Source of the DNA: a virus | DNA length: 42,550 bases | IMG/VR virus record: IMGVR_UViG_3300018875_000010 | Coordinates: 1-42,550 of that record | Reading direction: 5' to 3' (one strand) | Part shown: piece after piece, positions 1 to 41,232 of the stretch | How the letters are laid out: every line of letters starts with the position of its first letter | Numbering within the stretch: the stretch's first letter is position 1 | Made by a program: the position numbers and the translations under genes | Notes under the pieces: generated by a model | The model's database searches: none | What the model was told of the DNA's origin: nothing | The model's input: only the letters and a program-made list of their open reading frames with translations

Positions 1-479
1 GGGAGAAGCCGGAACACGCCGAGGTCGTCACGCTCCTCATCGACACCGGAATGAGGCCCAAGGAACTCTATAGCTTGGCCCCTCGGGACGTGGACCTGAA
101 GCACGACACCATCACTATCTGGAAGACGAAAACCGACCACCCTCGCACGGTCTACATGACCAAGCGGGTCAAGGACATCGTCTCGCGTCGTGTAAGTGCA
201 GTCACTGCACCGACCGCCAAGCTGTTCCCCTATAACAACGCTTGGCTGCGGCACACATGGGATCGAGCGAAGCTGCAACTTGGGTACGCCCACGACAAGC
301 AGTTCATCCCGTACATCTGCCGCCACACATGCGCGTCCCGGCTGGTTCAGCGCGGGGTGCCGATCAACGTGGTCAAGGAGTGGATGGGTCACAAGACCGT
401 CCAGATGACCATGCGTTACGCCCACCTAGCTCCGCAGAACCTGAAGGCTGCGGCAAGTGTCTTGGAGGCTGCTGAATGA
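1..479 (+). CDS. int: tyrosine integrase, C-terminal part (same gene as 41859..42550; the contig is circular)
   Basis: In-frame continuation of the ORF opening at 41859 through the 127-bp end overlap. Combined length is 1044 nt, 347 aa. Carries the tyrosine-recombinase signature CRHTCASR ... GH ... MRYAHL. Stop TGA at 477-479. Confidence 0.9.
   Translation, partial: EKPEHAEVVTLLIDTGMRPKELYSLAPRDVDLKHDTITIWKTKTDHPRTVYMTKRVKDIVSRRVSAVTAPTAKLFPYNNAWLRHTWDRAKLQLGYAHDKQFIPYICRHTCASRLVQRGVPINVVKEWMGHKTVQMTMRYAHLAPQNLKAAASVLEAAE
196..210. repeat. 15-bp palindrome GTGCAGTCACTGCAC, exact
   Basis: Inside the integrase; reads SAVTAP. Confidence 0.95.
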
Positions 480-706
480 TCCGAGAGGAACAACAGCGTT
501 CGTGGGTCGCCAAGCTCCAATACCCCGGCAAGAAACCGTGCTGGTTCGGTACGGTCCTGACGCGGGTAGACGCCCCACTCCATGAGGTTGAGGCCGAGGT
601 CTGGAAGAGATGGGACGAAATCTTCCCATCAGACACCCCTCGCCCCGGCCTCGTAGAACTGAAACCGGGAGCAATCTTCTTCGTCCCTGAAAAGGAGGCC
701 GCTTGA
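476..706 (+). CDS. hypothetical protein (76 aa)
   Basis: ATGA start/stop overlap with the integrase. Codon usage resembles neighbouring genes. No recognisable motif. Confidence 0.5.
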   Translation: MIREEQQRSWVAKLQYPGKKPCWFGTVLTRVDAPLHEVEAEVWKRWDEIFPSDTPRPGLVELKPGAIFFVPEKEAA

Positions 707-1083
707 TGAAACGTAGACCACCTGTCCCTGTCGTCCGGTACTTCGCCTTCGTGATGCCGGTCTATGATCGAGGCGCGGACGATGACGAACACCACGTCTA
801 CTCGCCTGCCGAGGAATGGGCCTTGGCCGAGAGCTTCCTCGTCCTCGGATGGGACCTAGATGCTCAAGAGTGGGTCACTCTCGGGACCTATGAGGACACC
901 GAGTTCAAGACCGCCAAGCGCCACGCTCGGGAGCATCATGAGAGTGTCTGCGAGAGGTTGGGGATGCTCCCCTACTTCTCTCGTAGAAGTGCAGTGACTG
1001 CACCACAGATCGACCAACTAGACACAATGTCTAGCATAGTCTATCAGAGCAGCGATGTGACGGGGAATGTCTCAAAGCTGTGA
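703..1083 (+). CDS. hypothetical protein (126 aa)
   Basis: ATGA overlap with the previous ORF. Contains one in-frame copy of the 15-bp palindrome (RRSAVTAPQ). Confidence 0.55.
   Translation: MMKRRPPVPVVRYFAFVMPVYDRGADDDEHHVYSPAEEWALAESFLVLGWDLDAQEWVTLGTYEDTEFKTAKRHAREHHESVCERLGMLPYFSRRSAVTAPQIDQLDTMSSIVYQSSDVTGNVSKL
989..1003. repeat. 15-bp palindrome, exact (G centre)
   Basis: Inside ORF 703..1083; reads SAVTAP. Confidence 0.95.
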
Positions 1084-1104
1084 CGGAGACCCTTTCCCGG
1101 TGAC

Positions 1105-1192
1105 GCGGGTGTGGCGGAATTGGTAGACGCGGCGGATTCAAAATCCGTTGTCCCTCAAAGACTTGCCGGTTCGAGTCCGGCCACCCGTACCA
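1105..1192 (+). tRNA. tRNA-Leu: tRNA-Leu (anticodon CAA), type II with long variable arm, CCA encoded
   Basis: Cloverleaf folded by hand. Acceptor GCGGGTG/CACCCGT (G1-U72 wobble). Leu-type D arm GTGGCGGAATTGGTAGACGC. Anticodon stem GCGGA/TCCGT with loop TTCAAAA. 16-nt variable arm. T arm GCCGG-TTCGAGT-CCGGC, then ACCA. Confidence 0.85.
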
Positions 1193-1252
1193 ATCCGCAC
1201 TAGTCTCAAAAGAGACCGTGTGACGGTGCGTCCCGAGGAACAGTTCTCGAAA

Positions 1253-1294
1253 CCCTTGCTGGATAAGGCTTTCCGGCAAGGGTTTTTCTTTTCC
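1253..1294 (+). terminator. rho-independent terminator after the tRNA
   Basis: CCCTTGC (1253-1259) pairs with GCAAGGG (1276-1282), followed by TTTTTCTTTT. Confidence 0.7.
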
Positions 1295-1295
1295 C

Positions 1296-1336
1296 CAATT
1301 AGTTCCTTGACCGCAACAGTTCCTGTGACGTAACGT
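1296..1336 (+). promoter_or_regulatory. sigma70-type promoter candidate upstream of the RNAP gene (copy A of a duplicated 28-bp cassette)
   Basis: -35 TTGACC (1307-1312), 18-nt spacer, -10 TAACGT (1331-1336). Bases 1296-1323 match 38584-38611 at 25/28. Confidence 0.5.
1302..1317. promoter_or_regulatory. GTTCC-N6-GGAAC element (GTTCC TTGACC GCAAC)
   Basis: One mismatch. The N6 spacer is the -35 box of promoter copy A. Confidence 0.55.
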
Positions 1337-1360
1337 CGTGTGACGTGACGGGGCGGAAAC

Positions 1361-1384
1361 CTGTGACCGAAAAACCCTCACCCT
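1361..1384 (+). repeat. 24-bp direct repeat, copy 1 (CTGTGACCGAAAAACCCTCACCCT)
   Basis: 23/24 identical to 1435-1458. Contains a TGTGACCG element and a degenerate phage-promoter core. Confidence 0.8.
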
Positions 1385-1388
1385 CAGT
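1369..1388 (+). promoter_or_regulatory. degenerate T3-like phage promoter
   Basis: GAAAAACCCTCACCCTCAGT shares the ACCCTCACC core with the consensus AATAAACCCTCACCTTCAC. Confidence 0.45.
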
Positions 1389-1434
1389 GTTTCGGACCCT
1401 TCGGTCCCCCTCTCCCGTCACAAGGCGCGGCCCT

Positions 1435-1458
1435 CTGTGACCGAAAAACCCTCACCTT
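1435..1458 (+). repeat. 24-bp direct repeat, copy 2 (CTGTGACCGAAAAACCCTCACCTT)
   Basis: See 1361-1384. Confidence 0.8.
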
Positions 1459-1462
1459 TAGC
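1443..1462 (+). promoter_or_regulatory. degenerate T3-like phage promoter just upstream of the RNAP gene
   Basis: GAAAAACCCTCACCTTTAGC. Lies 36 nt upstream of the RNAP ATG. Confidence 0.45.
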
Positions 1463-1497
1463 CATGCCCTAGAGGCCCAACCAAAGGAGAAAGACCT

Positions 1498-4076: not shown

Positions 4077-4113
4077 GGGGATCGAGTGCAGTCACTGCAC
4101 CGGTCCCCTTTTT
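4077..4113 (+). terminator. rho-independent terminator after the RNAP gene, built around a palindrome copy
   Basis: GGGGATC (4077-4083) pairs with GGTCCCC (4102-4108). This encloses GTGCAGTCACTGCAC and is followed by TTTTT. Confidence 0.7.
4086..4100. repeat. 15-bp palindrome, exact
   Basis: Intergenic; forms the core of the RNAP terminator hairpin. Confidence 0.95.
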
Positions 4114-4785: not shown

Positions 4786-5150
4786 TCCGTCATGTGGTGG
4801 GTCTGTCTCTTGCTCTTTGTCTTGCTGTCCTCCCGGCGCAAGCAAAGGGGGTGAGCGTCTCCGCTCGACCCTCCGTCTCTGTCGCTCGACCGTCTGTGCC
4901 GAACGTCCGTCCTTCGGTCCCATCCGTGCCGCGTACAGTCACTGCACCGACACCTCCACCGGCACCGAAGGTCAACCCGTATGTCAAGCCGAGTGAACCA
5001 TCCGGTTCCGAGCGCAAGCCGACATACGCACCTGTCCTGAATAAACCCTCACCTTCACTGTCGAAGCCATCCGATCCCAAGACCCATTCGTGGTTCTGGT
5101 TCTGGTGGTTTTGGGATGACGACGACGATGACGAAGAGGACGACGACTAA
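4782..5150 (+). CDS. secreted proline-rich protein with WFWFWWFW patch and poly-acidic C-terminus
   Basis: N-terminal signal-peptide-like MIRHVVGLSLALCLAVLPAQAKG. RPSV repeats. Ends HSWFWFWWFWDDDDDDEEDDD. GTGA overlap with the previous gene. Confidence 0.6.
   Translation: MIRHVVGLSLALCLAVLPAQAKGVSVSARPSVSVARPSVPNVRPSVPSVPRTVTAPTPPPAPKVNPYVKPSEPSGSERKPTYAPVLNKPSPSLSKPSDPKTHSWFWFWWFWDDDDDDEEDDD
4933..4947. repeat. 15-bp palindrome, 14/15
   Basis: GTaCAGTCACTGCAC in ORF 4782..5150; reads TVTAP. Confidence 0.85.
5040..5059 (+). promoter_or_regulatory. T3-like phage RNAP promoter located inside ORF 4782..5150
   Basis: AATAAACCCTCACCTTCACT, the exact 20-mer of 4304-4323. Confidence 0.7.
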
Positions 5151-5765: not shown

Positions 5766-5780
5766 GTGCAGTCACTGCAC
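5766..5780. repeat. 15-bp palindrome, exact
   Basis: 3 nt after a stop codon. The 26-mer TAACCGGTGCAGTCACTGCACTAATC is shared with the copy at 33019. Confidence 0.95.
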
Positions 5781-7349: not shown

Positions 7350-7923
7350 GATCACCCACATCGTAATCCACTGCACCGCAACGCCTGCGGGCAAGGAGGT
7401 GACTGTCAAAGAGATAGATCGTTGGCACCGTGCCCGTGGCTTTGCGAAGATCGGCTACCACTATGTCATCCACCTCGACGGCTCCGTCTCTGTTGGACGT
7501 AAGGAGTCCGAGGCGGGCGCTCATGTGGCAGGCCATAACGCAACCACCATCGGCATCTCCTATGTCGGTGGCGTCGATGCAAACGACATCAACAAGGCTC
7601 GGGACACCCGCACTCCCGCACAGAAGGCAGCGATGGAGAAGCTCGTTCGTGAGTTGCTCACTCGCTATCCTGGCGCTGAAGTCCTCGGCCATCGTGACTT
7701 CCCCGGCGTAGCCAAAGCCTGCCCGTCATTCGACGCTCGGGCATGGTGGAAGTCCGTCGATAAGGTTGTCCCTGAAATGGGACCGGTCGAGTTCGTGCAG
7801 GCTGTCGAGGGGGACACCCTCTCGAAGATCGCCCGCGAACACGGCATGAGCCTCACTGAAATTCGCAAGCTCAATCCCGGCGTGGAGGAGCTTCGGATCG
7901 GACAGAAGGTCCGCGTGGTGTAG
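7342..7923 (+). CDS. N-acetylmuramoyl-L-alanine amidase (T7 gp3.5 lysozyme-like) with C-terminal LysM domain
   Basis: IVIHCTATP...GYHYVI...GHN...HRD....KACPSF amidase_2 pattern. C-terminal LysM-like GDTLSKIAREHGMSLTEIRKLNP. Confidence 0.9.
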   Translation: MRKITHIVIHCTATPAGKEVTVKEIDRWHRARGFAKIGYHYVIHLDGSVSVGRKESEAGAHVAGHNATTIGISYVGGVDANDINKARDTRTPAQKAAMEKLVRELLTRYPGAEVLGHRDFPGVAKACPSFDARAWWKSVDKVVPEMGPVEFVQAVEGDTLSKIAREHGMSLTEIRKLNPGVEELRIGQKVRVV

Positions 7924-7937
7924 TGCAGTCACTGCAC
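7923..7937. repeat. 15-bp palindrome, exact
   Basis: Overlaps the last base of the amidase stop codon; a promoter follows 1 nt later. Confidence 0.95.
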
Positions 7938-8717: not shown

Positions 8718-10363
8718 TGTCCGACGACAGCGAGTTTCTCGAACACATTCCGTGCGAGAACTGCGGTAGCTCAGACGCCAACTCGCTGTACTCGGACGGT
8801 CATCAGTATTGCTTCGCCTGTGAGGCTTATGTGCCTCCGGGCGAAGACGCTCCAACGAACCAAAGGAGGACGAAGCGCATGGCAGGCTTCGTGTCAGGTG
8901 CAGTCACTGCACTTGGCAAGCGTAAGATCAACGAAGCGACGTGTCGTAAGTTCAACTACCAAGTCGGTGAGTACAGTGGTCAGAAGGTCCAGATCGAGAA
9001 CTTCCTCGATGACGCTGGCAACCTGATCGCGCAGCACCTCCGGTTCCCCAACAAGGACTTCGTGTGGCTCGGAGACAGCAAGAACGCTGGTCTCTTCGGT
9101 CAGCACCTGTGGCGCGACAAGGGCCGCATGGTGGTTATCACCGAGGGAGCCATCGACTGTCTCACCGTGTCGCAGCTACAGGACAACAAGTGGCCGGTGG
9201 TGTCCCTCCCCTCTGGCGCAAGCCGTGCGAAGAAGGACATCGCTCGGGCGCTTGAGTGGCTCCTCGGCTTCGAGGAAATCGTTCTGTTCTTCGACAACGA
9301 CGAGGCAGGCCGGAAGGCCGTCGAGGAGTGTGCCCCTCTGTTCCCTCCGGGTCGATGCAAGATCGCCCGCATGGCTGACTTCAAGGACGCCAATGAGGCG
9401 CATCAGGCGGGCCGGTCGAAGGACATCATCGACGCTATTTGGGGAGCCAAGGTCTATCGCCCTGACGGGGTCATCAACGGTGCCGAGATGTGGGACAGCC
9501 TCACCTCGGACGATGAAATCCTCGACAGCGCCGACTACCCTTGGGACGGACTAAACACCATCACCCACGGCTTGCGCTGCGGGGAGCTGGTCACGATCAC
9601 CGCTGGTTCCGGCATCGGTAAGTCCGCGCTGGTCCGCGAGATTGCTCACTTCCTTCTCATGAATGGTGAGACGGTCGGGATGCTCATGCTTGAGGAAAGC
9701 ACGAAGCGTACCGCGAAGGGCCTCATGGGTATCACCATGAACAAGCCCATCCACCTCGACCTGACCCCTTGGTCGGAACTCCCGCCCGAGGAGAAGGAAG
9801 CCCGCAAGGCTGCGTATGATGCAACGGTCGGCTCCGGTCGGCTGTACCTCTATGACCACTTCGGCTCGACTGAGGTGGACAACCTACTCAACCGTATCCG
9901 CTACCTCGCTAAGGGGTGCGGGTGCAAATACATCGTCCTCGATCACCTCTCGATTGTGGTGTCTGGTCTGGATGACGGTGACGAGCGCAAGGCCATCGAC
10001 GTTGCGATGACCAAGCTCCGCACCCTTGTTCAGGAGACCGGCATCTGCCTCATCATGGTTTCCCACCTGAAGCGTCCCTCCGGGGACCGGGGCCATGAGC
10101 AAGGCGCTGAGACCTCCCTCGCTCAACTGCGTGGTTCGCACTCCATCGCCCAACTGTCGGACATCGTCATCGGCCTGGAGCGCAATCAGCAGGACGAGAA
10201 GACCAAGAACATCGTCACAGTCCGCATCCTGAAGAACCGCTTCTCCGGTGAGACCGGGATCGCTTGCCATCTCCACTACGACAAGGAGACCGGGCGGCTG
10301 GCGGAAGTCAGCATCGAGTTCCTTCAGGGAGAGGACGAGGACAACGAACCCTCTGAGTTTTGA
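8717..10363 (+). CDS. DNA primase-helicase (T7 gp4-like)
   Basis: Zn ribbon CENCGSSD..N15..CFAC. TOPRIM EGAIDCLT and DNDEAGRKA. Walker A GSGIGKS. Acidic C-terminus ends in Phe (EPSEF). Confidence 0.95.
   Translation: MSDDSEFLEHIPCENCGSSDANSLYSDGHQYCFACEAYVPPGEDAPTNQRRTKRMAGFVSGAVTALGKRKINEATCRKFNYQVGEYSGQKVQIENFLDDAGNLIAQHLRFPNKDFVWLGDSKNAGLFGQHLWRDKGRMVVITEGAIDCLTVSQLQDNKWPVVSLPSGASRAKKDIARALEWLLGFEEIVLFFDNDEAGRKAVEECAPLFPPGRCKIARMADFKDANEAHQAGRSKDIIDAIWGAKVYRPDGVINGAEMWDSLTSDDEILDSADYPWDGLNTITHGLRCGELVTITAGSGIGKSALVREIAHFLLMNGETVGMLMLEESTKRTAKGLMGITMNKPIHLDLTPWSELPPEEKEARKAAYDATVGSGRLYLYDHFGSTEVDNLLNRIRYLAKGCGCKYIVLDHLSIVVSGLDDGDERKAIDVAMTKLRTLVQETGICLIMVSHLKRPSGDRGHEQGAETSLAQLRGSHSIAQLSDIVIGLERNQQDEKTKNIVTVRILKNRFSGETGIACHLHYDKETGRLAEVSIEFLQGEDEDNEPSEF
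8898..8912. repeat. 15-bp palindrome, exact
   Basis: Inside the primase-helicase; reads GAVTAL. Confidence 0.95.
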
Positions 10364-10961: not shown

Positions 10962-10976
10962 GTGCAGCCACTGCAC
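10962..10976. repeat. 15-bp palindrome, 14/15 (CC centre)
   Basis: 4 nt after the stop of 10676..10957. Confidence 0.85.
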
Positions 10977-11002: not shown

Positions 11003-12844
11003 ATGAGGCTTGTATTTGACATCGAAACCAATGGGCTATTGGACGAGACTTCCCTCGTTCACAGCCTCTGCATCAAGGACGTAGACACCGGGAAGATTTG
11101 GTCATGCGCTGACCATGAGGGTTACGTCCCTGTCGAGCAAGGCGTTCGGATGCTGATGAACGCCGAACTCATCATCGGACACAACATCATCAAGTTCGAC
11201 CTTCCGGCCCTACAGAAGGTCTACCCTTGGTTCACCTACGACCGTCACAAGGTCTTCGACACTATCGTCATCTCTCGCCTCATCTGGCCCAAAGACGACC
11301 TCAAGCAGCGGGACTTCAGGCTGACCAAGGATGGCAAGCTCCCCGGTAAACTGATCGGGCGCTACTCCCTTGAGGCTTGGGGCTACCGGCTTGGGAACTA
11401 CAAGGGCGACTACAAGGGTCCTTGGGACCGCTGGTCTAAGGAGATGCAGGACTACTGCGAACAGGACATCGAGGTCACTCATACCCTGTTCCAGCGGATC
11501 GAGAAGAAGGAGTGGGACCAACGGTCCATCACTCTTGAGCATCAGGTCCAGTTCATCATCGCCCGTCAGGAACGCTACGGCTTCCTCTTCGATCAGCAGG
11601 GCGCAGCCGCCCTCTATGCCACTCTCGTTCAACGCAAGACCGAGCTAGAGGCCGAGCTTCAATCCGCGTTCCCACCGTGGACCGTGGAGACCGTCTTCAT
11701 CCCGAAGGTCAATAACAAGACCCGAGGGTATGTGAAGGGTGTCCCCTTCATCAAACGCAAGACGGTTCACTTCAAGCCGTCCAGCCGTCAGCACATCTCG
11801 AAGGTCCTGAAGGACAAGTACGGATGGGAGCCGCAGGAGTTCACCGACAACGGTGAGCCGAAGGTGGACGATGATGTCCTCTCCGAGCTTCCCTACCCGG
11901 AGGCCAAGGTTCTCTCTGAGTTCCTTATGGTCGAGAAGCGGCTCGGGCAACTGGCGACCGGCAAGGAGGCGTGGCTCAAGCACGTCAAGGCCGATGGACG
12001 TATCCACGGCGAAGTGACCACCAACGGTGCAGTCACTGGACGTATGACCCATGCCAAGCCGAACATCGCCCAGGTGCCAGGTCTGACAGACAAGAAGACC
12101 GGGAAGCCCATGCCCTATGGCAAGGAGTGCCGTTCCCTCTTCATCGTCCCCAAAGGCAAGAAGCTGGTCGGCTGCGATGCTGACGCTTTGGAGCTTCGGT
12201 GCCTCGCCGGATACATGGCGAAGTACGATGGTGGCGCGTACATCAAGACCGTCCTCGAAGGAAAGAAAGAACTCGGGACGGACATGCACACCGTCAATGC
12301 GAAGGCTCTCGGCACAACCCGAGACATCGCAAAGGTGTGGTTCTATGCGTTCATCTACGGGGCCGGTGACTTCAAGCTCGGCACCATCCTTGGTGCGCCC
12401 AAGGGCAAGGAGATTGAGTGGGGCAAGCGTTCCCGCGCCCGCTTCCTCAAGAACCTCCCGGCGCTCGGGACCATCGTGGAGAAGGTCAAGAAGGCCGTGC
12501 AGAAGCGCGGCTACCTCAAGGGCCTCGATGGTCGTCAACTGCGTGTGCGTTCGTCGCACTCGGCATTTAACACTCTGCTTCAGTCTGCTGGCGCTGTGCT
12601 GATGAAGGCCGCTCTCGTCATCCTAGACGAGGACCTTCAGGCGGCGGGCTATGTCCCCGGTAAGAACTACGAGTTCGTCGCCAACGTGCATGACGAGTTC
12701 CAGATCGAAGCCGACGAGGAGATAGCTGACGATGTCGGCAAACGTGCAGTCACTGCAATTATCAGAGCAGGAGAGTTCTTCAGCTTCGGATGTCCACTCA
12801 ACGGAAACGCAGACGCTGGAGGCTCTTGGGCCGCAACTCACTAA
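11003..12844 (+). CDS. family A DNA polymerase with 3'-5' exonuclease (T7 gp5-like)
   Basis: Exo I FDIETNGL. NGAVTGRMTHAKPNIAQVPG matches T7 NGAVTGRATHAFPNLAQIPG. Motifs DADALELRCLA, KVWFYAFIYGAG and HDEFQIE present. Ends in H like other Pol A enzymes. Confidence 0.95.
   Translation: MRLVFDIETNGLLDETSLVHSLCIKDVDTGKIWSCADHEGYVPVEQGVRMLMNAELIIGHNIIKFDLPALQKVYPWFTYDRHKVFDTIVISRLIWPKDDLKQRDFRLTKDGKLPGKLIGRYSLEAWGYRLGNYKGDYKGPWDRWSKEMQDYCEQDIEVTHTLFQRIEKKEWDQRSITLEHQVQFIIARQERYGFLFDQQGAAALYATLVQRKTELEAELQSAFPPWTVETVFIPKVNNKTRGYVKGVPFIKRKTVHFKPSSRQHISKVLKDKYGWEPQEFTDNGEPKVDDDVLSELPYPEAKVLSEFLMVEKRLGQLATGKEAWLKHVKADGRIHGEVTTNGAVTGRMTHAKPNIAQVPGLTDKKTGKPMPYGKECRSLFIVPKGKKLVGCDADALELRCLAGYMAKYDGGAYIKTVLEGKKELGTDMHTVNAKALGTTRDIAKVWFYAFIYGAGDFKLGTILGAPKGKEIEWGKRSRARFLKNLPALGTIVEKVKKAVQKRGYLKGLDGRQLRVRSSHSAFNTLLQSAGAVLMKAALVILDEDLQAAGYVPGKNYEFVANVHDEFQIEADEEIADDVGKRAVTAIIRAGEFFSFGCPLNGNADAGGSWAATH
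12027..12041. repeat. 15-bp palindrome, 14/15
   Basis: In the DNA polymerase, across the conserved NGAVTGR motif. Confidence 0.8.
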
Positions 12845-14004: not shown

Positions 14005-14239
14005 GTGGGTCATCCTCACGCAGCCGAACTGCACCCCCTGTAAGGAGGCGAAGCAGATGTTGTGGGATCGGGAAATCCCGTATGCCGAGTTCGACATCAC
14101 GCTTCACCACGACCTGAAGTCCTTCTTGGTGCAGTCACTACACAAGCCAACCACTCCTCAAGTGTTCCTCAATGGCTACCGTATCGGTGGCCGTGACGAA
14201 CTCCGTGAGTATTTCCGCAACCTGGAGAACACCGACTGA
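13994..14239 (+). CDS. glutaredoxin/NrdH-like redoxin
   Basis: CTPC active site and TTPQVFLNGYRIGGRDEL, a typical Grx fold signature. Lies close to the RNR gene. Confidence 0.8.
   Translation: MKDRWVILTQPNCTPCKEAKQMLWDREIPYAEFDITLHHDLKSFLVQSLHKPTTPQVFLNGYRIGGRDELREYFRNLENTD
14129..14143. repeat. 15-bp palindrome, 14/15
   Basis: In the glutaredoxin; alternative frame reads VQSLH. Confidence 0.8.
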
Positions 14240-15316: not shown

Positions 15317-15331
15317 GTGCAGTGACTGCAC
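15317..15331. repeat. 15-bp palindrome, exact (G centre)
   Basis: Its central GTG is the start codon of 15322..15708. Confidence 0.95.
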
Positions 15332-26953: not shown

Positions 26954-29407
26954 ATGGCAAAACTAGACGACCTCCTGAAGCAACTCGGAGGCCGAGGCGG
27001 GATTAGTCGTCCCGCCTTCACGCCTACCGCTTCGCCGGTCAGAACGGTCGCCACTGACCTCACCTTCAACGAGCTTCCGCGTCCGGTGGAGATGCCAAAG
27101 CCGCAGGCTCCGATGGCTCCCCGGATGCCACAGGCCCCGGCTCCGTCGAACGTCGATCAGCTTGTCTCCGCTCTGGCGTCCCTGAACCCGCAACTCAACC
27201 GGTTCATGGGGAGCTACTTCGAGGAGCAGAACAAGCAGGACCGGCTGGACGCCGAGGTGAAGTACCTTCAGGACAACTCCCCGGCCTCCTGGTCGGAAGC
27301 TGTCAAGCGTGACCCCACGCTCCTCGACCGTTCCCCGGTCTTCCGTCAGGTGTATGAGAGCCGAGTGGCCCGGACTGCCGTGCAGCAGCGGGCGGCTTCC
27401 CTCATCTCTGAATACCACAACTCCCCCATTGCCGCTTCTGAGGACCCGAGCGCCATTACCGGCTGGCTTCAGGAGCGCATGAAGGACCTCCTCGATGTGG
27501 ACGCCTCGCCTGCCGCGAAGGAAGCCTTGGTCGAGGAAATCCAGACCATCGCTCACCGCTTCCAACAGGCACACGCCGAGGTCGCCCGTAAGAACCTTTG
27601 GGAGAAGAACCAACAGTCCCTCTCGGTTCGCTATCAGACGACCTTCGACGGCTACCGTGCGCTTGGCCCTGCCGTCCCCTACCAGACGGATGACCCTGTC
27701 ATTGCCGCCAATGTTGGCAAGGATGGGGACCCTCGGGCTGCGATGAAGGCTGCGTTCCTCAATGCCGTGGCCGGTGGTGAGAGCGCGGGCAAGTACAACA
27801 TTCGCTACGATGGCGGCGCGGGTTCGCTGTTCGACATCAACGGGATGCACCCTCGCATCTTCGTGCCGACCAAGGGCGGTGAAGTGTCGTCCGCTGCGGG
27901 TCGCTACCAATTCGTTTGGACGACTTGGAACGAACTCGGGTTCGGCAACAAGCCGATGACCCCGGAGAACCAAGACAAGGCGGCTCTGATGCTGGCCGAG
28001 CGGGACTACAAGGCCCGTACCGGTCGGAACCTGTGGGACGACATGGAGAAGGAAGGCTTCAGCCCCCGTATCCAAGCTGTCCTTACCCCAACGTGGCAGG
28101 CCCTCAAGGGCAACCGTGGTCGCCACCTCGCCACCTATAACGCTTCCCTTCAGAAGTACGGTGGCAAGCCTACCGGCCCCGGTGTCCAGAACGCCCACAT
28201 CCCCGAGATGGTCGAGGAGGTTCGGAAGATCGAGCAGGAGGCGTCCGCACAGGGCATGACCTTCAGCCAGATCAACGAGCTTACCCTCAACGCGGTCATC
28301 AACAACGCCATCACCAATCAGGACGAAAGCATCCTTGAGGTGGCGACGTTGAGCCGTCCGCACGGTCTCTCGGTGGATCAGGCCAAGCAGATCGAGGACG
28401 CCCGCGCCCGTATCCGCAACCTTCGGGTCCAAGCGGAGAACGACCGGAAGAAGATCGAGGACGCTGCGAAGGAGGCACGGCAGGCCGATGTCACTCAGAA
28501 GGTGGCTGCGGCGATGCTGGCTCAGATGAAGCCCGGTCCCAACGGTGAACCTCCCAAGTCCCCCACGATCCCGACCGAAATCCTTGAGGCGGCGAACGCG
28601 GAGGACCCGGAGTTGTTCAAGGAGCTGGTCGATCTTCAGAAGAACCTCGACACGGTCCACAAGATCGAGGACCCCAACGCTGTCGCTGACCTGACGGCTC
28701 GGGTCTACGCCGGTCGTGCGGATCAGAGGGAAGTCCTTCAGGCTGTCTCTCGGGGCACCCTGAAGAACCAGATCACGATGGGTCAGCTTCTTGAGTTCGC
28801 TGGTCGCGGGTCGAACGACAACCCGCTCAACGATCCCGGCGTGGACAAGATCATCTCGTCCATCGAGACCGTCGTGGGACAGAAGGACAACCTTCAGGTT
28901 CTCCGCAACCCGACCGCTGCCGGTCAGGCTCTCGCTCACTTCTCGGGCGGGCTGATGCGGTTCAAGCAGTTGAACCCCACGGCAAGCCCCATGCAAATCT
29001 TCGAGGAAGCCCGCAAGCTCCAGGCCGAGGTGATGGAACTCTACGCCTCACCGGGAGACCTCAAGAAGTTCAAGGAGAACTCCCCTGAAGCTCGGATGGC
29101 GAAGAAGGCGCAGGGCGGCACAAGTGCAGTCACTGCACCGACCACGCCGCAGCCGAGCAAGCCGGGAGAGCAGAAGGCCGAGGCCGCTCCCCCGATTGAA
29201 CCCCGTAAGGTCGAGTACACGAAGGTTCCTGTCTATCCCGACAGAGGCACCCTCGATAGCGACTTCGCGGCGTACATGAAGGGTGCGACCGACAACAACT
29301 TCGCCCGCTGGCTGAAGGCCAACGGCATCCTCGGAAATCCGCAGGCGACCGTTGAGTTCCTCCAGGCTCAGAGGCGCTTGCTCGAAACAAACACTAGCAA
29401 AGGTTAA
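26954..29407 (+). CDS. internal virion protein with lytic transglycosylase domain
   Basis: GGESAGKYN...HP....SSAAGRYQFVWTTW resembles lambda-R-type transglycosylases. Occupies the gp15/16 position. Confidence 0.8.
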   Translation: MAKLDDLLKQLGGRGGISRPAFTPTASPVRTVATDLTFNELPRPVEMPKPQAPMAPRMPQAPAPSNVDQLVSALASLNPQLNRFMGSYFEEQNKQDRLDAEVKYLQDNSPASWSEAVKRDPTLLDRSPVFRQVYESRVARTAVQQRAASLISEYHNSPIAASEDPSAITGWLQERMKDLLDVDASPAAKEALVEEIQTIAHRFQQAHAEVARKNLWEKNQQSLSVRYQTTFDGYRALGPAVPYQTDDPVIAANVGKDGDPRAAMKAAFLNAVAGGESAGKYNIRYDGGAGSLFDINGMHPRIFVPTKGGEVSSAAGRYQFVWTTWNELGFGNKPMTPENQDKAALMLAERDYKARTGRNLWDDMEKEGFSPRIQAVLTPTWQALKGNRGRHLATYNASLQKYGGKPTGPGVQNAHIPEMVEEVRKIEQEASAQGMTFSQINELTLNAVINNAITNQDESILEVATLSRPHGLSVDQAKQIEDARARIRNLRVQAENDRKKIEDAAKEARQADVTQKVAAAMLAQMKPGPNGEPPKSPTIPTEILEAANAEDPELFKELVDLQKNLDTVHKIEDPNAVADLTARVYAGRADQREVLQAVSRGTLKNQITMGQLLEFAGRGSNDNPLNDPGVDKIISSIETVVGQKDNLQVLRNPTAAGQALAHFSGGLMRFKQLNPTASPMQIFEEARKLQAEVMELYASPGDLKKFKENSPEARMAKKAQGGTSAVTAPTTPQPSKPGEQKAEAAPPIEPRKVEYTKVPVYPDRGTLDSDFAAYMKGATDNNFARWLKANGILGNPQATVEFLQAQRRLLETNTSKG
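29124..29138. repeat. 15-bp palindrome, exact
   Basis: In 26954..29407; reads SAVTAP. Confidence 0.95.
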
Positions 29408-29409: not shown

Positions 29410-32400
29410 ATGGAACCCGTTGAACTGACACCGGAGGACCTTCTTCAGGCTGAGAAGACCCGTTTGGAGCTTCAGAAGCTGATGGAGCAGGACCCCTCCA
29501 TGTTGGAAAGCGTCGGGTCCGGTATTGTGGAGGGGGCCAAGGAAGCCCCCTTCCAAGCCGCCCGAGGCGTACAGGAGGGAATGAACGAGGTCTCCGACAC
29601 GTCATTCTCGATTGCCAAGTGGCTCAACGATAACGTCATTGACCTCGGGCACCTCAAGTTCGGTGGTGACGCCAAGGGAGGTGCGGGACCGGAAGGCTTC
29701 GTCCAGTGGTTCCCCGGTATGCCCGAGCAGAACAATCTCAAGTTCGGTGAGGACACCCTTGTCGGTGAAGCTCCGAAGACCGTCATCGGCAACCTGACGA
29801 ATGACATCGCTCAGTTCGTGGGCGGCTATGCCACTCTCGGTCGCTTGTTCAAGACGACCTCGGTTGCCGGTGGTGTGGCGCATGGCATGGTCAAGGGTGC
29901 AATCGTGGACGCCGCTGCGTTCGATCCCCATGAGGAGCGCCTTGCGAACCTGATCGAGCAGCACACCGACTTCGCTAAACCCGTCACCGACTTCCTCGCT
30001 GCACGGCCCGACGATACGGAAGCTGAAGGTCGCTTCAAGAACGCCCTCGAAGGTCTCGTCCTCGGTGGCATGACGGACGCTGTCTTCCACGCTGTTCGTG
30101 CCGTCCGGTTCAAGCAGATGGGGAAGATGGACGAAGCTGCCGCCGCTCTCGATGAGGTCGAGAAGGCCGAGGCTGCGGCGAAGGCCAAGCCTACCGAGGA
30201 AAGTGCAGCCACTGCACCGAAGGAGGAGGCCAAGCCCGAGGAGCCGAAGAAGGAAGAGGAGCAACTCAACCTCGACCTCGGGGACACCCCGCAGGACACC
30301 TTCACTGGCACCCGAGGGGAGAACGGTAAGCTCAAGCCCGAAGACCTGGCACCCGACGTGCCCCCGAAGACCGGACCCTTCAAGGACATCAAGCCGGTCG
30401 TGAAGCTCTCCGAAGAAGACCTTCAGCACCTCGACAACATGAGGACCGCTGAGTTGGGCTTCGGTCAGGGCCGCAACCTCTCCGGTATCCGCACGGACCT
30501 GTGGGAGGTGGACGAGGACATCAACCAGAACGTCAGCGCAATCGCCCGTCAGTACGGGGACCGGATGCGCCGGATGATGGGCGGCAACGCCGATGGTGTC
30601 CGCTCATGGGATCGCACAAGGGCCAACGCCGAGAAGTTCGCTGACCTCATTGGTGAGGACCCCCGTATCCTCTTCCAGCGTATGAGGGCCATGCACAAAG
30701 AGAACTTCATGGCCGACGCCGAGATGCTGGCCTATCGGGATGTGATGGCGACCGCCAACGCCCGCCTCGAAGAGGCTGCGGAGGCGATTGCGAACTCCAA
30801 CTACAACTACGCTACCGGCAAGTTCAAGTCAGTGGCGGAAGCTCGGGAGGCGTTCGCAAAGCATTGGGAAATCCTCGCCAACACGCAGCTTATGTATAAG
30901 GGGCTTCAGACCTCGTTCGCTCGGACGATGAACTCCTTCAAGATCGCCGCTAAGGCCCGTAATGGTCTCCTCGAAGGGGCCGACCCTGACGCCATGTGGA
31001 AGGGTGGACCGGAAGCGATGCAGAAGATGGCCCGTCAGGTTCTGGCAAATAGGGGCAACCTCGCTGCGAACGCTAAGGCCGCTCGTAGGGGCTTCGTCCA
31101 GAAGTTCTTCGACGTGGTGCAGGAGTTCCAGATCAACTCCCTTCTGTCCGGTCCCAAGACCCACCTCGTCAACATGGTCTCGGGTGTCTTCAACTCGGCC
31201 TTCCTGCCTGCCGAGAAGATGCTCTACGGTGCCGCGAAGCTGGATTTGGCTACGGCCCGAGAGGCAGCCGAGCAGTATTGGGGTATGGTCATGAGCGCCC
31301 GCGAGGCAGCGCAGCTTGCCGCCAAGGCGTTCAAGGCTGGTGATCCGGTCCTCGATCCTACCCACGGTGGGGCCGAGCATCGTGCAGCTATCTCGGCTGC
31401 GAACTTCAACATCACCGACCCGGTTGCTTCTGCGGTGGTCAACGGTCTCGGCAACCTCGTTCGCATCCCGTCGCGGTTCCTCGCTGCGGAAGACGAGTTC
31501 CTCAAGCAGATCAACTACCGTGCAGCCATTCGCGCCCAGGCGTGGCGTGAGGCTCGGGCTGAAGGGAAAGAGGGCAAGGCGTTCTCCGAGCATGTCGCCA
31601 CTCGGCTCAATGAGGCTATCTCCCCGACCGGCTCTGCCTTCAATGCGAAGGGTGAGGCACTCAACGAGCGGGCATTGAGACAGGCCCGAGAGGCAACCTA
31701 TACGCAAGACCTCGGGGCTGAGAGCGGGACTTGGTTCGGTAATCAGACCCTCGGTCAGAGCATCCAGAACTTCGCTGCGGCTCATCCGTATCTGCGAACC
31801 ATCGTGCCCTTCATCCGTACACCGACGAACCTCTTCCGGTTCGTCCACAACCGCACCCCTGTCCTCAACCTCCTGCGGAAGCAGTACGCTTACGATTTCA
31901 TGGGGAAGAACGGCCAGGAGGCGGCTGACCGTGCGCGGGCACAGTTCCTCTCTGGTGGCTTACTGTGGGCTGGCGCTATCTCCTACGTCCACTCAGGAGA
32001 CGTGACCGGCGCAGGCCCGACCGATCCTGACATCAGGAAGGCCCTCATGGACACCGGCTGGCGTCCCTACTCGATCCGCGTCGAGAAGGAAGACGGAACG
32101 GTCCAGTACGTCCAGTACAACCGGTTCGACCCCTTCGGCATGTTCCTCGGCCTCGCTGCGGACTTCGCTGAAGTGTCCGGTGCGTATCCCGAGCGTGATC
32201 TTGACGAGACCGCCCTTGCGATGACAACGGCCCTCGCCAAGAACCTGAACAACAAGTCCTACCTCACCGGTATCATCAACGGCCTCGGCGCGATGGCTGA
32301 ACCGGAGCGGAGGGGCGAGTTCTTCCTTCAGGGGCTTGCCTCGGGCTTCGTGCCGAACTTCATGCAGCAGTCCCTCAACGACGATCCTTACTTCCGTGAG

Positions 32401-33018: not shown

Positions 33019-33033
33019 GTGCAGTCACTGCAC
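33019..33033. repeat. 15-bp palindrome, exact
   Basis: 3 nt after a stop codon; a terminator follows. Confidence 0.95.
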
Positions 33034-35185: not shown

Positions 35186-35200
35186 GTGCAGTCACTGCAC
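35186..35200. repeat. 15-bp palindrome, exact
   Basis: Starts the base after the tail-fibre stop and ends 2 nt before the next ATG. Confidence 0.95.
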
Positions 35201-35202: not shown

Positions 35203-35424
35203 ATGGACGAGCAGAACCAACTCTACCTGATGTTGGGCCGGATCGACGGTAAACTCGACCACGCCCTCCAGCGTCAGGACAAGTCCGATAAGGAAGTGGA
35301 GGCCCTCTCAAAGAGGGTCTCCGCCCTCGAAAGCAGCAAGGCGTGGGTGATAGGTGCAGCCACTGCACTTTCCTCCCTTGTCGCCACCTCCATCCCATTC
35401 CTAAAGGATTGGCTTCTGAAGTAA
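35203..35424 (+). CDS. small protein with C-terminal TM helix, possible holin (gp17.5 position)
   Basis: Call rests on position and the single TM AWVIGAATALSSLVATSIPFL. Confidence 0.45.
   Translation: MDEQNQLYLMLGRIDGKLDHALQRQDKSDKEVEALSKRVSALESSKAWVIGAATALSSLVATSIPFLKDWLLK
35354..35368. repeat. 15-bp palindrome, 14/15 (CC centre)
   Basis: In 35203..35424; reads GAATAL. Confidence 0.85.
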
Positions 35425-37441: not shown

Positions 37442-37456
37442 GTGCAGTCACTGCAC
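37442..37456. repeat. 15-bp palindrome, exact
   Basis: Starts the base after the terminase stop. Confidence 0.95.
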
Positions 37457-37481: not shown

Positions 37482-37498
37482 GTGCAGTATCACTGTAC
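37482..37498. repeat. spacer-expanded palindrome variant GTGCAGT-ATC-ACTGtAC
   Basis: Same 7-nt arms (one mismatch) with a 3-nt centre. Confidence 0.7.
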
Positions 37499-37507
37499 CT
37501 GTCATAA

Positions 37508-37524
37508 GTGCAGTGGTACTGCAC
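37508..37524. repeat. spacer-expanded palindrome variant GTGCAGT-GGT-ACTGCAC
   Basis: Perfect arms with a 3-nt centre. Lies 3 nt before the promoter. Confidence 0.8.
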
Positions 37525-38282: not shown

Positions 38283-38297
38283 GTGCAGTCACTGCAT
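38283..38297. repeat. 15-bp palindrome, 14/15
   Basis: In the non-coding end region. Confidence 0.85.
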
Positions 38298-38386: not shown

Positions 38387-38401
38387 GTGCAGTGGCTGCA
38401 C
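38387..38401. repeat. 15-bp palindrome, 14/15 (GG centre)
   Basis: In the non-coding end region, flanked by CCG on the left. Confidence 0.85.
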
Positions 38402-38804: not shown

Positions 38805-38819
38805 GTGCAGTGACTGCAC
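38805..38819. repeat. 15-bp palindrome, exact (G centre)
   Basis: In the early leader, 65 nt upstream of HH-A. Confidence 0.95.
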
Positions 38820-40208: not shown

Positions 40209-40221
40209 TCGCGCCCCTACG

Positions 40222-40237
40222 GTTCCCCTTCAGGAAC
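40222..40237. promoter_or_regulatory. GTTCC-N6-GGAAC element, perfect
   Basis: ACGGTTCC-CCTTCA-GGAACCGT. The 3' arm overlaps the HH-C stem III strand. Confidence 0.6.
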
Positions 40238-40297
40238 CGTTCGGTCTTCCCCTGAAGCCGGGGAACTGATGAGCCGAAGGCACGGCGAAACCGAACG
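40238..40297 (+). ncRNA. hammerhead ribozyme HH-C (type III), predicted cleavage after C40246
   Basis: Stem III CGUUCGGU/ACCGAACG. GUC triplet. Stem I UUCCCC-UGAAGCC-GGGGAA. Core CUGAUGA. Stem II GCCG-AAGGCA-CGGC. GAAA. Confidence 0.85.
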
Positions 40298-40311
40298 CTA
40301 AGGAGACAGCT

Positions 40312-40656
40312 ATGGAACTGCTTACCGATGCCATCAAGGAAGCCTTGCTTGCCAATGGACGCCGCACGGCCCAAGGCGAGACCATAGACCCGCATCCGGT
40401 CTGTAAACTCTTTACACCGGACGCCGGGGCTACCTGGCTCTTGACGGAATTGGACCCGCTCGATCCCGACATGGCCTTCGGTCTCTGTGACCTTGGGCTA
40501 GGCGAACCCGAGATTGGCTATGTGTCATTGACCGAAATCAAAGCCATCCGGGGACGCCTCGGGCTACCCGTTGAGCGGGACCTCTACTTCAACGCCACCC
40601 TGCCCTTGAGCCTCTACGCTGAGAGGGCACGACTCCAAGGGTGCATTGCAGCCTAA
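40312..40656 (+). CDS. DUF2958-family protein
   Basis: KLFTPDAGATWLLTELDP....AFGLCDLGLGEPEIGYVSLTEI...RGRLGLPVERDLYF is the DUF2958 pattern as remembered. Confidence 0.8.
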   Translation: MELLTDAIKEALLANGRRTAQGETIDPHPVCKLFTPDAGATWLLTELDPLDPDMAFGLCDLGLGEPEIGYVSLTEIKAIRGRLGLPVERDLYFNATLPLSLYAERARLQGCIAA

Positions 40657-40658
40657 AC

Positions 40659-40673
40659 GTGCAGTCACTGCAC
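40659..40673. repeat. 15-bp palindrome, exact
   Basis: 2 nt after the stop of 40312..40656; directly abuts HH-D. Confidence 0.95.
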
Positions 40674-40674
40674 C

Positions 40675-40753
40675 TATACACCGCCTGATGAGACCATAGG
40701 GTCGAAACCTAGAGAGGGTGCTTTAGTTTCCCTCTCGACGGTCGCGGTGGATA
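40675..40753 (+). ncRNA. hammerhead ribozyme HH-D (type I), predicted cleavage after C40743
   Basis: Stem I UAUACACCGC/GCGGUGGAUA (one mismatch). Core CUGAUGA. Stem II GACC-AUAG-GGUC. GAAA. Stem III ACC..GAGAGGG-loop-CCCUCUC..GGU. GUC triplet. Confidence 0.7.
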
Positions 40754-40783
40754 CCCCTTTTGAGCCTACGCCGCACCGATCAA

Positions 40784-40799
40784 ATTCCTGTCAAGGAAC
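40784..40799. promoter_or_regulatory. GTTCC-N6-GGAAC element (ATTCC TGTCAA GGAAC)
   Basis: One mismatch. Upstream of the first MarR-like gene. Confidence 0.45.
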
Positions 40800-40815
40800 A
40801 AACCCATTATTGACT

Positions 40816-40835
40816 TGAACCCAAAAATGGGTTCA
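40816..40835. promoter_or_regulatory. perfect 20-bp palindrome TGAACCCA-AAAA-TGGGTTCA, candidate operator upstream of the first MarR-like gene
   Basis: Abuts a TTGACT hexamer (40810-40815), 26 nt upstream of the ATG at 40861. Confidence 0.5.
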
Positions 40836-40860
40836 TCTCCGTGCGCCAAGGGCAATAAGA

Positions 40861-41175
40861 ATGAGAATCCACCAACAGCTTTGGGACATGGGACAAGCCG
40901 TCCGTGCCGTAGACCCGAAATTCGATGTCACGGCATGGCTGGTCTTTCTTTATGTCGCCAAGAACCCTGGCACAGGTTCAGCGTCCATCGTCAAGGAACT
41001 CGACCTGTCCCAAAGCACGCTCTCTCGGACAGTGATTTACCTGTCCAATCTGCCTAACGGCTTAAACCTGATAGCGATGGAGCCGAACCCGGAGGATCGG
41101 AGACAGCACCGTCTTTATCTGACCGAGAAAGGTGAGGCTTTCCTAAAGTCGCTGCGTAAAATCATTGGGGGCTAA
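40861..41175 (+). CDS. MarR-like winged-helix regulator (104 aa)
   Basis: GTGSASIVKELDLSQSTLSRTVIYL....EPNPEDRRQHRLYLTEKGEAF shows the MarR HTH-plus-wing pattern. Confidence 0.7.
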   Translation: MRIHQQLWDMGQAVRAVDPKFDVTAWLVFLYVAKNPGTGSASIVKELDLSQSTLSRTVIYLSNLPNGLNLIAMEPNPEDRRQHRLYLTEKGEAFLKSLRKIIGG

Positions 41176-41217
41176 GACCCTCAGATCACCTCAGAACTCG
41201 ATGTGTGTGTCCGTTGG

Positions 41218-41232
41218 GTGCAGTGACTGCAC
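41218..41232. repeat. 15-bp palindrome, exact (G centre)
   Basis: Intergenic, after the first MarR-like gene. Confidence 0.95.

Follow-up and report, generated by a model that had tools for sequence, protein, structure and literature searches.

The window analysed here, the whole 42,550-nucleotide stretch of IMG/VR virus record IMGVR_UViG_3300018875_000010, holds the complete, circularly permuted genome of a T7-like podophage with 59% G+C and all genes on the + strand, among them genes for an integrase, an RNA polymerase (RNAP), the virion proteins, and the terminase (Table 1). No close cultured phage was found, the best matches being patches that are ~70–80% identical, and an identical protein is also encoded on a 42,564-bp metagenome contig. 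Its integrase and MarR-like genes, and its relatives, which are prophages in Azorhizobium, Chelatococcus, and Roseomonas, indicate that the phage is temperate. The genome has nine T3-like phage promoters, whose core is AACCCTCACCTTCA. Here, we describe a 15-bp palindrome, GTGCAGTSACTGCAC, that recurs around this genome, is maintained by selection on its nucleotide sequence, and may act as a stem-loop that punctuates the phage transcripts.

The palindrome occurs in 19 exact copies, against none in 100 dinucleotide shuffles, and in nine further copies with one mismatch (14/15), as a preliminary description made from the sequence alone had counted; the 28 copies within two mismatches compare with 0.11 expected. 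Two 17-bp variants bring the total to 30. These had been described as carrying the same 7-nt arms around a 3-nt centre, which holds for the copy at 37508 (GTGCAGTGGTACTGCAC), while that at 37484 (GTGCAGTATCACTGTAC) has one arm mismatch. Both orientations are used, 12 of the exact copies being C-centred and seven G-centred. Isolated half-sites are nearly absent, with 29 GTGCAGT and 28 ACTGCAC in the window against the 19 exact and nine near palindromic copies. The 26-mer TAACCGGTGCAGTCACTGCACTAATC is indeed shared by the copies at 5766 and 33019. The full 21-mer CCGGTGCAGTCACTGCACCGG, previously given as an extension of some copies, is found at none of those in the window: CCG lies 5′ of some copies and CGG 3′ of others, never both.

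The distribution of the copies over the genome is far from random. They are evenly spread, with a largest gap of 3196 bp against 5814 bp expected under random placement (P = 0.002) and a coefficient of variation of the gaps of 0.62 (P = 0.004, random placement), which falls to 0.47 between 196 and 37442 (P about 1e-4). Between 14 and 17 of the 30 copies lie in the ~9% of the genome that is non-coding. Eight copies stand 0–4 nt past a stop codon, the one at 7923 overlapping its TAG, and copies adjoin phage promoters at 7923, 15317, 18168, and 37508, to all of which the preliminary description had drawn attention, and also at 4086. At four of the nine window promoters a copy ends 0–14 nt upstream of position −17, where about 0.1 would be expected by our own arithmetic, and most AATTAACCCCCAC promoters of the Azorhizobium prophage and of the relatives L303 and L212 (L numbers denote contigs and loci) have a copy 3–11 nt upstream. 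The copy at 4086 forms the apex of the terminator hairpin behind the RNAP gene (−28.5 kcal/mol, followed by a U run). Further copies lie inside essential genes, namely those for the integrase, the primase-helicase, the DNA polymerase (two copies), the gp12-like protein, and internal virion proteins.

These coding copies reveal on what selection acts. A codon-aware null model based on synonymous shuffling produces 0.73 coding copies on average and never more than 3, whereas the window has 13. Of the 12 copies that are clearly intragenic, ten are in the frame that gives x-A-V-T-A-x; AVTA peptides number six against 0.47 expected, and all are encoded GCA GTS ACT GCA, despite the rarity of the codons GCA (12% usage) and ACT (14%); codon usage gives P = 0.0016 per AVTA peptide. 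The copy at 12027, on the DNA polymerase motif GAVTGR, reaches 14/15 in the window and in one relative via synonymous changes alone, while other relatives have 4–5 mismatches. In the primase linker, the copy at 8898 was produced by amino-acid changes from EVQ or ETQ to AVT, and one relative gained its copy 16 codons upstream instead. As the preliminary description had supposed, the palindrome is, judged from these comparisons, a selected and functional cis-element, not a product of chance, and selection acts on the nucleotide sequence.

The same 15-mer is present in multiple copies in about ten IMG/VR contigs that are 67–81% identical (nucleotide) to the window. Despite diverging flanks, copies keep orthologous positions, where their centre base may be C in one genome and G in another. 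One relative that carries the palindrome is a prophage of Azorhizobium caulinodans ORS 571, in which the copies end at the prophage boundaries; another is a prophage in Chelatococcus sambhunathii. Twelve copies are found in a Roseomonas prophage (L305) and six in the contig L306, and the arms are conserved across hosts of different orders (Hyphomicrobiales, Acetobacterales). An assembly or vector artefact, against which the preliminary description had cautioned, does not account for the palindrome, because multiple copies recur at orthologous positions both in contigs assembled independently and in the finished A. caulinodans ORS 571 genome. Host-wide iteration is not supported either: in 47 kb of host flanks from several lysogens, a limited sample, there are no copies, and the half-site heptamer, seen twice against 5.2 expected, is not over-represented. 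A motif scan of a genome collection gave mostly single chance hits among the matches listed. No iterated palindrome was found in LUZ100, CRP-118, SIO1, a Bosea prophage, or GCA_000517005, and of 80 loci collected for their similar terminases, the known relative alone has the motif, 76 being without an iterated palindrome. No cultured phage was found with the repeat, Agrobacterium phage Atu_ph02 having one copy only, and a literature search for the palindrome sequence found no paper containing it.

Two other repeats came up in these comparisons. Three of the terminase-retrieved loci carry a different 15-bp palindrome, CGTTACA-C-TGTAACG, restricted to an early promoter region of another T7-like lineage with 47–49% G+C (L235 at 5634, 5660, and 6726; L233/L234 at about 12166–12326); its 2–3 copies upstream of the first genes after the terminase gene look like an ordinary operator. 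In L188 (Zetaproteobacteria metagenome-assembled genome, PEAA01000045) a near-copy recurs every ~1.1 kb in identical flanks, which is a long tandem repeat unrelated to the phage element.

Table 1. Genes, palindrome copies, and other sites of the window, with corresponding loci in relatives and islands (ORF, open reading frame; promoters are named by position; T12 and T17 are LUZ100 transcript ends).
Feature	Position	Strand	Details
Integrase gene, C-terminal part	51-479	+	ORF wraps window end (42497-42550/1-479)
tRNA-Leu(CAA) gene	1105-1192	+	complete
RNAP gene	1498-4047	+
Single-stranded DNA-binding protein gene	6116-6907	+
Endonuclease I gene	6756-7349	+
Amidase gene	7342-7923	+
HTH_39 winged-helix protein gene	8035-8283	+
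Primase-helicase gene	8717-10363	+
DNA polymerase gene	11003-12844	+
Genes for ThyX, glutaredoxin, exonuclease, dGTP diphosphohydrolase-like protein, ribonucleotide reductase	13031-18166	+
Portal to tail fibre genes	18849-35185	+
Large terminase subunit gene	35714-37441	+
Non-coding repeat region	about 37940-38950
Early region	from 38953	+	includes two MarR-like paralogues (40861-41175, 41527-41859)
Palindrome copy	196..210		exact, C centre; inside integrase gene, encodes SAVTAP; ortholog kept in L212, L049, L301, L303, L302
Palindrome copy	989..1003		exact, G centre; inside ORF 703-1083, encodes SAVTAP
Palindrome copy	4086..4100		exact; apex of long terminator hairpin after RNAP gene; 14 nt upstream of −17 edge of promoter 4119; orthologs in L019, L022
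Palindrome copy	4933..4947		14/15 (G3>A); low-complexity ORF 4782-5150
Palindrome copy	5766..5780		exact; 3 nt past stop of ORF 5505-5762; 26-mer in common with 33019
Palindrome copy	7923..7937		exact; overlaps amidase TAG stop; abuts −17 edge of promoter 7942
Palindrome copy	8898..8912		exact; primase-helicase linker (GAVTAL); arose by amino-acid changes relative to relatives
Palindrome copy	10962..10976		14/15 (T7>C); 4 nt past stop codon, 26 nt before DNA polymerase gene
Palindrome copy	12027..12041		14/15; on conserved DNA polymerase motif GAVTGR; synonymous codon changes only
Palindrome copy	12744..12758		14/15 (C15>A); DNA polymerase C-terminus (RAVTAI); kept in five relatives
Palindrome copy	14129..14143		14/15; inside glutaredoxin gene
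Palindrome copy	15317..15331		exact; ~24 nt downstream of start of promoter 15280; overlaps start codon of ORF 15322
Palindrome copy	18168..18182		exact; 1 nt past ribonucleotide reductase stop; 5 nt upstream of −17 edge of promoter 18192
Palindrome copy	20441..20455		exact; small ORF after portal gene (SAVTAP); 0 nt from T12
Palindrome copy	22753..22767		exact; just downstream of T-run after capsid gene, 16 nt before gp11 gene
Palindrome copy	25150..25164		exact; inside gp12-like gene (VQSLH)
Palindrome copy	25928..25942		exact; inside gp13-like gene (ECSDCT); 12 nt from T17
Palindrome copy	29124..29138		exact; internal virion protein gene (SAVTAP)
Palindrome copy	30203..30217		14/15 (T7>C); inside gp16-like gene (SAATAP)
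Palindrome copy	33019..33033		exact; 3 nt past gp16-like stop; ortholog in L305 and L306 with 4-nt centre
Palindrome copy	35186..35200		exact; 0 nt past tail-fibre TAA stop, fills gap to next ATG (TAA-copy-CG-ATG)
Palindrome copy	35354..35368		14/15 (T7>C); junction of ORF 35203 and small terminase gene
Palindrome copy	37442..37456		exact; 0 nt past large terminase stop; first of three tandem copies
Palindrome copy	37484..37500		17-bp variant GTGCAGT-ATC-ACTGTAC, one arm mismatch
Palindrome copy	37508..37524		17-bp variant GTGCAGT-GGT-ACTGCAC; 3 nt upstream of AATTAACCC promoter at 37532; class kept here clade-wide, centre free
Palindrome copy	38283..38297		14/15; non-coding repeat region
Palindrome copy	38387..38401		14/15 (A9>G); non-coding repeat region; orthologs in L061, L004, L028
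Palindrome copy	38805..38819		exact; early-region leader, 133 nt before ORF 38953
Palindrome copy	40659..40673		exact; 2 nt past stop of DUF2958 gene
Palindrome copy	41218..41232		exact; 42 nt past stop of first MarR-like gene
GGAAC-N-GTTC(C/T) sites, window	1237-1247, 1313-1323, 4062-4072, 38601-38611, 39777-39787, 41375-41385
GGAAC-N-GTTC(C/T) sites, relatives	L303 6615, 11975; L301 9867
Island palindrome and T3-like promoter	L181 1700-1765	minus
Island palindrome and T3-like promoter	L106 3440-3660	minus
Island palindrome and T3-like promoter	L185 5770-7100
Island palindrome and T3-like promoter	L169 4430-4520
Island palindrome and T3-like promoter	L094 6297

What form does the element take? 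Counted between 6-mer arms, the centre is 3–5 nt long: among 120 exact-arm copies it has 3 nt in 90, 4 nt in 13, and 5 nt in 17, and the 3-nt centres are TCA (39), TGA (33), CGA (8), CCA (5), TAA (2), TCG (2), and TGG (1). In L305 and L306 the arms GTGCAG/CTGCAC are kept around a centre of 4 or 5 nt that varies in sequence, at the orthologous sites after gp16, after the terminase gene beside the promoter, and inside the integrase gene. Wherever a copy precedes the post-terminase promoter, it belongs to the 7+3+7 class, and its centre is free (GGT, GAT, GAG, or CTG). This variability of the centre in length and sequence, with unchanged arms in deeper relatives, points to a stem-loop, and the core alone folds at −7.5 kcal/mol; the hairpin around the copy at 4086 has flanks that differ between relatives. 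The element may be a clade-specific stem-loop, conserved in sequence as well as shape, with arms GTGCAG(T)/(A)CTGCAC, a view that we hold with a little less than even confidence. Of the Rfam 15 covariance models, only that of the tRNA-Leu gene reaches its gathering score, and the palindrome matches no family.

Two variants of the arms deserve mention. In the prophage remnant of Bosea sp. MMO-172 (L304), the copies at 1524 and 3598, which are orthologous positions, both read (G/C)TGGAGTGACTTCAC; their double change, C4>G with G12>T, would keep a G-U pair in the coding-strand RNA and is the sole hint of a compensatory change. A second variant, GTGGAGTGACTGCAC, stands right before the ATG in early regions (L301 at 8847 and 9192; L303 at 6414, 7927, and 8403; L212/L067 at 10559 and 12139), where its GGAG can act as a ribosome-binding site.

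Since all genes are on one strand, each copy is transcribed into polycistronic phage mRNAs, and transcript data from a relative bear on what may happen there. In LUZ100, 22 transcript 3′ ends with sequential read-through have been mapped by the long-read method ONT-cappable-seq (PMC10134795), a number similar to the 30 copies here. When these ends are projected onto the window by tblastx anchors, 15 are mappable and six of them fall within 66 bp of a copy, three of these being intragenic (0, 12, and 66 bp); for a 150-bp window, P = 0.037. Tentatively, and at somewhat less than an even chance, we favour a sequence-specific RNA stem-loop that punctuates transcripts. Each copy would be a punctuation mark in the mRNA, placed at cistron ends, directly upstream of units with a phage-RNAP promoter, and at intervals of at most ~3 kb in long genes; on reaching a copy, transcription would pause or end, or the RNA would be cut there, after which the stem-loop would shield the RNA upstream, and a trans-acting factor would read the stem sequence. 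Because the arm sequence is constant without compensatory changes, a factor that reads the stem sequence must, we infer, be involved, just as we infer RNA as the active form, the event at the site, and the existence and identity of this reader. A pause or processing hairpin in RNA was one of several roles listed in the preliminary description, and it is now the best supported of them, by the variable centre between invariant arms, the LUZ100 ends, and the terminator apex at 4086.

Several observations weigh against an RNA stem-loop. Most copies lack a U tract, so that they are not intrinsic terminators; a U run follows only at 4086, within the longer hairpin, the base after the core is C in 90 of the 120 copies, and a terminator scan of 37400–42550 returned none at any copy. 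The stem is short (6–7 bp), and complementarity ends with the core, the flanks giving 0.42 pairs where the shuffled control gives 0.76. Pairing is not conserved apart from sequence: no fully compensatory arm variants were seen, and by hand count the wobble-preserving variants number about five on the transcribed strand against six on the other. The flanks have R at −1 and Y at +1, roughly dyad-symmetric and with no pairwise correlation, a pattern more in keeping with a pair of DNA half-sites read independently than with a helix. Of the 74 copies of the 15-bp class that have T7 and A9, 72 are centred on C or G, and the centre flips between the two at orthologous sites, as would that of a two-fold symmetric duplex site. 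The copy at 12027 has a mid-arm mismatch and yet was built by selection, which fits the behaviour of a protein operator better than hairpin stability. Finally, no reader has been identified among the candidates examined. The lack of covariation and of helix extension, the symmetric flanks, the C/G centre, and the selected mid-arm mismatch copy are all points favouring a protein that binds the duplex.

The copies would then be duplex-DNA sites for a dimeric, sequence-specific protein, comparable to stoperators or insulators, that blocks elongation or occludes phage promoters, silences the prophage, or forms roadblocks in the lytic cycle. We consider this rather unlikely. Perfect dyad symmetry, invariant 7-bp arms, and the selection of copies that still hold one mismatch would suit such a protein, as would the three tandem copies beside the post-terminase promoter, the copies that abut the −17 edge of phage promoters, and the temperate lifestyle, and genome-wide roadblocks would be well served by even spacing and by copies built into long genes; the L5 stoperators and the repeat of Cluster O mycobacteriophages offer precedents (PMC4351075). 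However, the distance between the 7-bp half-sites ranges over 1–3 bp, both inside individual genomes and between orthologous sites, and a rigid dimer would not be expected to tolerate this; the arms are unchanged between clades whose repressor operator differs, the sites are symmetric where true stoperators are asymmetric and oriented with transcription, and no cognate protein emerges. Overall, a stem-loop, most simply in RNA, is favoured over a rigid dimer because of the variable centre length, the free loop of the 7+3+7 class, the apex at 4086, arms that outlast the operator, and the LUZ100 ends. The element needs a sequence-specific reader under the stem-loop and the duplex reading alike.

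Which proteins could read the element? The MarR-like proteins and the winged-helix protein encoded at 8035 had been put forward as binders, and both proposals are now weaker. The conserved MarR protein (41527, beside the integrase gene), which is 78% identical in Azorhizobium, is associated instead with GGAAC-N-GTTCC, while its paralogue (40861) is confined to the window and not conserved in relatives with the motif. GGAAC-N-GTTC(C/T) gives eight hits against 1.2 expected and is also found in relatives; GGAAC-N-GTTCC occupies the −35/−10 spacers of the sigma70-type promoters that precede the early region and the RNAP gene, is also found upstream of the Azorhizobium MarR gene, and is probably the operator of a MarR-like lysogeny repressor. 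In the Roseomonas clade TCCCA-N4-TGGGA takes the place of this presumed operator while the GTGCAG arms are the same. In L305, TCCCA-N4-TGGGA is found at 9598, 9844, 10700, 11272, 12312, and 13254, including the early promoter spacer, and recurs after nearly every early gene, 25–45 nt from a GTGCAG copy; it looks like a true multi-copy repressor operator.

The winged-helix protein (HTH_39) is conserved in every relative that covers its region, and no PDB relative of it was found. It is an unlikely reader: ~65% identical homologues, with an essentially identical HTH region, are encoded in the Bosea and GCA_000517005 prophages, which are without the iterated palindrome or any other repeated k-mer, and more distant homologues are present in LUZ100, CRP-118, and SIO1, likewise without the repeat. 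A 266-residue early protein (38953–39753) is the only non-structural protein present in all motif-bearing genomes yet absent from LUZ100 and CRP-118. It is encoded by the first early gene, is 44–86% identical across the motif-bearing genomes, has a low-complexity centre, and is modelled by AlphaFold as all-helical (pLDDT 82); it gave no Pfam or PHROG hit and no PDB fold match, and the Bosea remnant that encodes a 60% identical homologue has degenerate copies only. Among the window ORFs scanned, no methyltransferase, HNH, ParB-family, or RAYT/transposase gene was found.

Three further explanations were weighed. The copies might be single-stranded DNA hairpins used in replication, for loading or recognition by a T7-type primase-helicase or as origin modules with promoters, their spacing setting lagging-strand priming. 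GTC is the T7 primase recognition triplet, and every S-centred copy has exactly one central 5′-GTC-3′ on one strand, where an A or T centre would give none; gaps never exceed 3.2 kb, copies adjoin phage promoters, as in the T7 primary origin, and chromosomal islands carry the same promoter and palindrome module. We nevertheless find replication improbable, as the centre orientation has no polarity along the genome and flips at orthologous sites, variants such as CCA, TTGC, TTCG, and CCTA have no GTC on either strand, a T7-type primase needs only the trinucleotide and not a 15-mer, and the copies lie upstream, not downstream, of promoters and so would fall outside the R-loop. A target of a host system, such as a transcription factor, a nucleoid protein, a Chi-like or uptake signal, or a restriction-type enzyme reading GTGCAG, which is a BsgI-type site, could account for arms that are conserved across host orders and for the motif in islands without any protein common to the phage. 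This is quite improbable given that the motif is not over-represented in the host flanks, that the islands carry promoters of this phage clade and so depend on phage, and that half-sites are almost never single, unlike Chi or uptake signals.

Very improbable, in our view, is a mobile or recombinogenic micro-element, be it REP/MITE-like or a linker for the exchange of gene cassettes between phages, the latter having been among the roles listed at the outset. Many copies do flank variable genes (early genes, tail fibre gene), two share the 26-mer, and the motif is present in unrelated islands. Insertion of the coding copies is ruled out by protein and nucleotide alignments, which point to point substitutions instead; copies are stable at orthologous positions and absent from the host flanks, where the heptamer is not enriched, no RAYT/transposase gene accompanies them, and cassette exchange cannot be the purpose of a copy that synonymous changes created within the DNA polymerase gene.

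How does the element compare with known systems? The stoperators of phage L5 were reportedly described by Brown and colleagues in 1997. Here as there, a temperate phage has tens of copies of one short site, enriched in intergenic gaps by stop and start codons. L5 stoperators, however, are asymmetric 13-mers that follow the direction of transcription and are recognised by the immunity repressor, whereas the present element is a palindrome used in both centre orientations, and the likely repressor operator is another motif. For the stoperators of L5 and Cluster A, the presumed role is to stop transcription, as PMC4351075 summarises. Among known elements, the one closest in kind is the repeat of Cluster O mycobacteriophages, a 17-bp dyad, TGTTCGG-NNN-CCGAACA, with more than 30 copies and unexplained function (Cresawn et al, 2015; PMC4351075), for which the authors predicted binding by a dimeric protein (PMC4351075); we see in it a resemblance and not homology, there being no sequence relationship. 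Both have invariant 7-bp inverted arms, a short variable centre, at least 30 copies genome-wide, and no meaningful orientation, and both are partly intragenic, with about a third of the Cluster O copies inside coding regions. The Cluster O phages, in turn, are siphoviruses of Mycobacterium, unrelated in sequence and host, not obviously temperate, and without a phage RNAP, and their repeats are unlinked to promoters or rearrangements, whereas the copies here are tied to stops and phage-RNAP promoters, evenly spaced, and variable in centre length.

LUZ100 has transcript ends that match positions of copies here, yet lacks the repeated motif. On the T7 map, intercistronic RNase III sites and terminators are paired with promoters, and the likeness extends to intercistronic hairpins and promoters at matching map positions after the RNAP, lysozyme, exonuclease, capsid, gp16, and terminase genes. 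T7 RNase III substrates, however, are long irregular hairpins of ~20 bp or more with individual sequences, whereas here one 6–7-bp stem is reused ~30 times, and the copies do not offer the roughly two helical turns of double-stranded RNA with an internal loop that mark such sites. REP/REPIN elements are likewise short, hairpin-capable palindromes in multiple copies right after stop codons; they number in the hundreds, are host-chromosomal and extragenic, and are paired with a RAYT (Y1 transposase) gene, in contrast to an element with no copies in the host flanks and a third or more of its copies intragenic. Chi and DNA uptake sequences are single, oriented, host-enriched sites, while the half-sites here nearly always form inverted pairs. 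The KorB operator OB on plasmid RK2 and sites of the parS/NBS type are 13–16-bp palindromes, with a central S in OB, that exert global control from about a dozen copies. They resemble the present element in being a 13–16-bp palindrome scattered over a mobile genome, and differ in their fixed spacing and in their need for a ParB-family protein.

The palindrome is also found outside the phages. Islands in Pseudochelatococcus, Microvirga, Aureimonas, and Tianweitania hold 1–4 copies, including 16- and 17-bp variants, and have no protein in common with the window. One island (L185) has a 22-nt match to window promoter 1447 and an array of about six promoter-like repeats, and in two others (L181, L106) a copy lies 8–25 nt upstream of AATTATCCCTCAC-type promoters, before an RNase H-like gene. 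The islands with palindrome and promoter (Microvirga, Tianweitania, Pseudochelatococcus) encode a serine recombinase and RNase H-like, ParB-like nuclease, HNH-like, and Bro-N proteins. Since they carry promoters of this phage clade, they point to a shared dependence on the phage transcription system and not to a host regulon, and they may serve as satellites or defence islands that the phage RNA polymerase activates. Possibly, though we think it doubtful, all of this reflects an undescribed system of transcript punctuation and control in temperate alphaproteobacterial T7-like phages, with a new reader (a stem-specific endoribonuclease, an RNA-binding protein, or a flexible roadblock protein), whose module the Microvirga, Tianweitania, and Pseudochelatococcus islands would have copied so that their nuclease-type genes fire only with the phage RNAP.

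Other features of the genome bear on its lifestyle and annotation. The tRNA-Leu(CAA) gene lies ~600 nt downstream of the integrase gene, and attP is probably at or near it, because in the Azorhizobium prophage the RNAP gene adjoins attL. The phage-type promoters 1373 and 1447 (window 1340–1460) stand directly upstream of the RNAP gene, each preceded by CTGTGACCGAAA, with more TGTGAC repeats upstream; they would create a positive feedback loop, as proposed for LUZ100. Between the late and early genes, the region 37940–38950 holds six AAATCAG iteron-like repeats at 38436–38500 and the direct repeats CTATTGTTTTCGA (about 38320 and 38509) and GCTAAGTCATTGA (38182 and 38537), and CCTATAGG motifs are found at 37567–38401; this non-coding region probably contains the genome ends, a terminal repeat, or an origin. 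The ORFs 41331–41702 and 41527–41859 (the conserved MarR), each with homologues in relatives, overlap by 176 nt in different frames; a miscalled start codon in one of them is probable.

In conclusion, T7-type phages are known for a textbook simple, fully lytic transcription programme, temperate relatives have been recognised only recently, and how these control a self-amplifying RNA polymerase circuit is an open question. The element described here is a palindrome iterated over the genomes of temperate Autographiviridae-like phages; it is coupled to phage promoters, and chromosomal islands have copied it. A 15-bp signal in ~30 copies, selected even within the DNA polymerase gene and coupled to phage promoters, suggests a regulatory layer for which this family has no description. 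With a relative residing as a prophage in the cultivable, fully sequenced Azorhizobium caulinodans ORS 571, the question lends itself to direct testing, and the answer would bear on the unexplained Cluster O repeats as well. It may also yield a compact, portable punctuation element for T7-type polymerase circuits, and islands with the same module suggest elements that are wired to sense one specific phage RNA polymerase.

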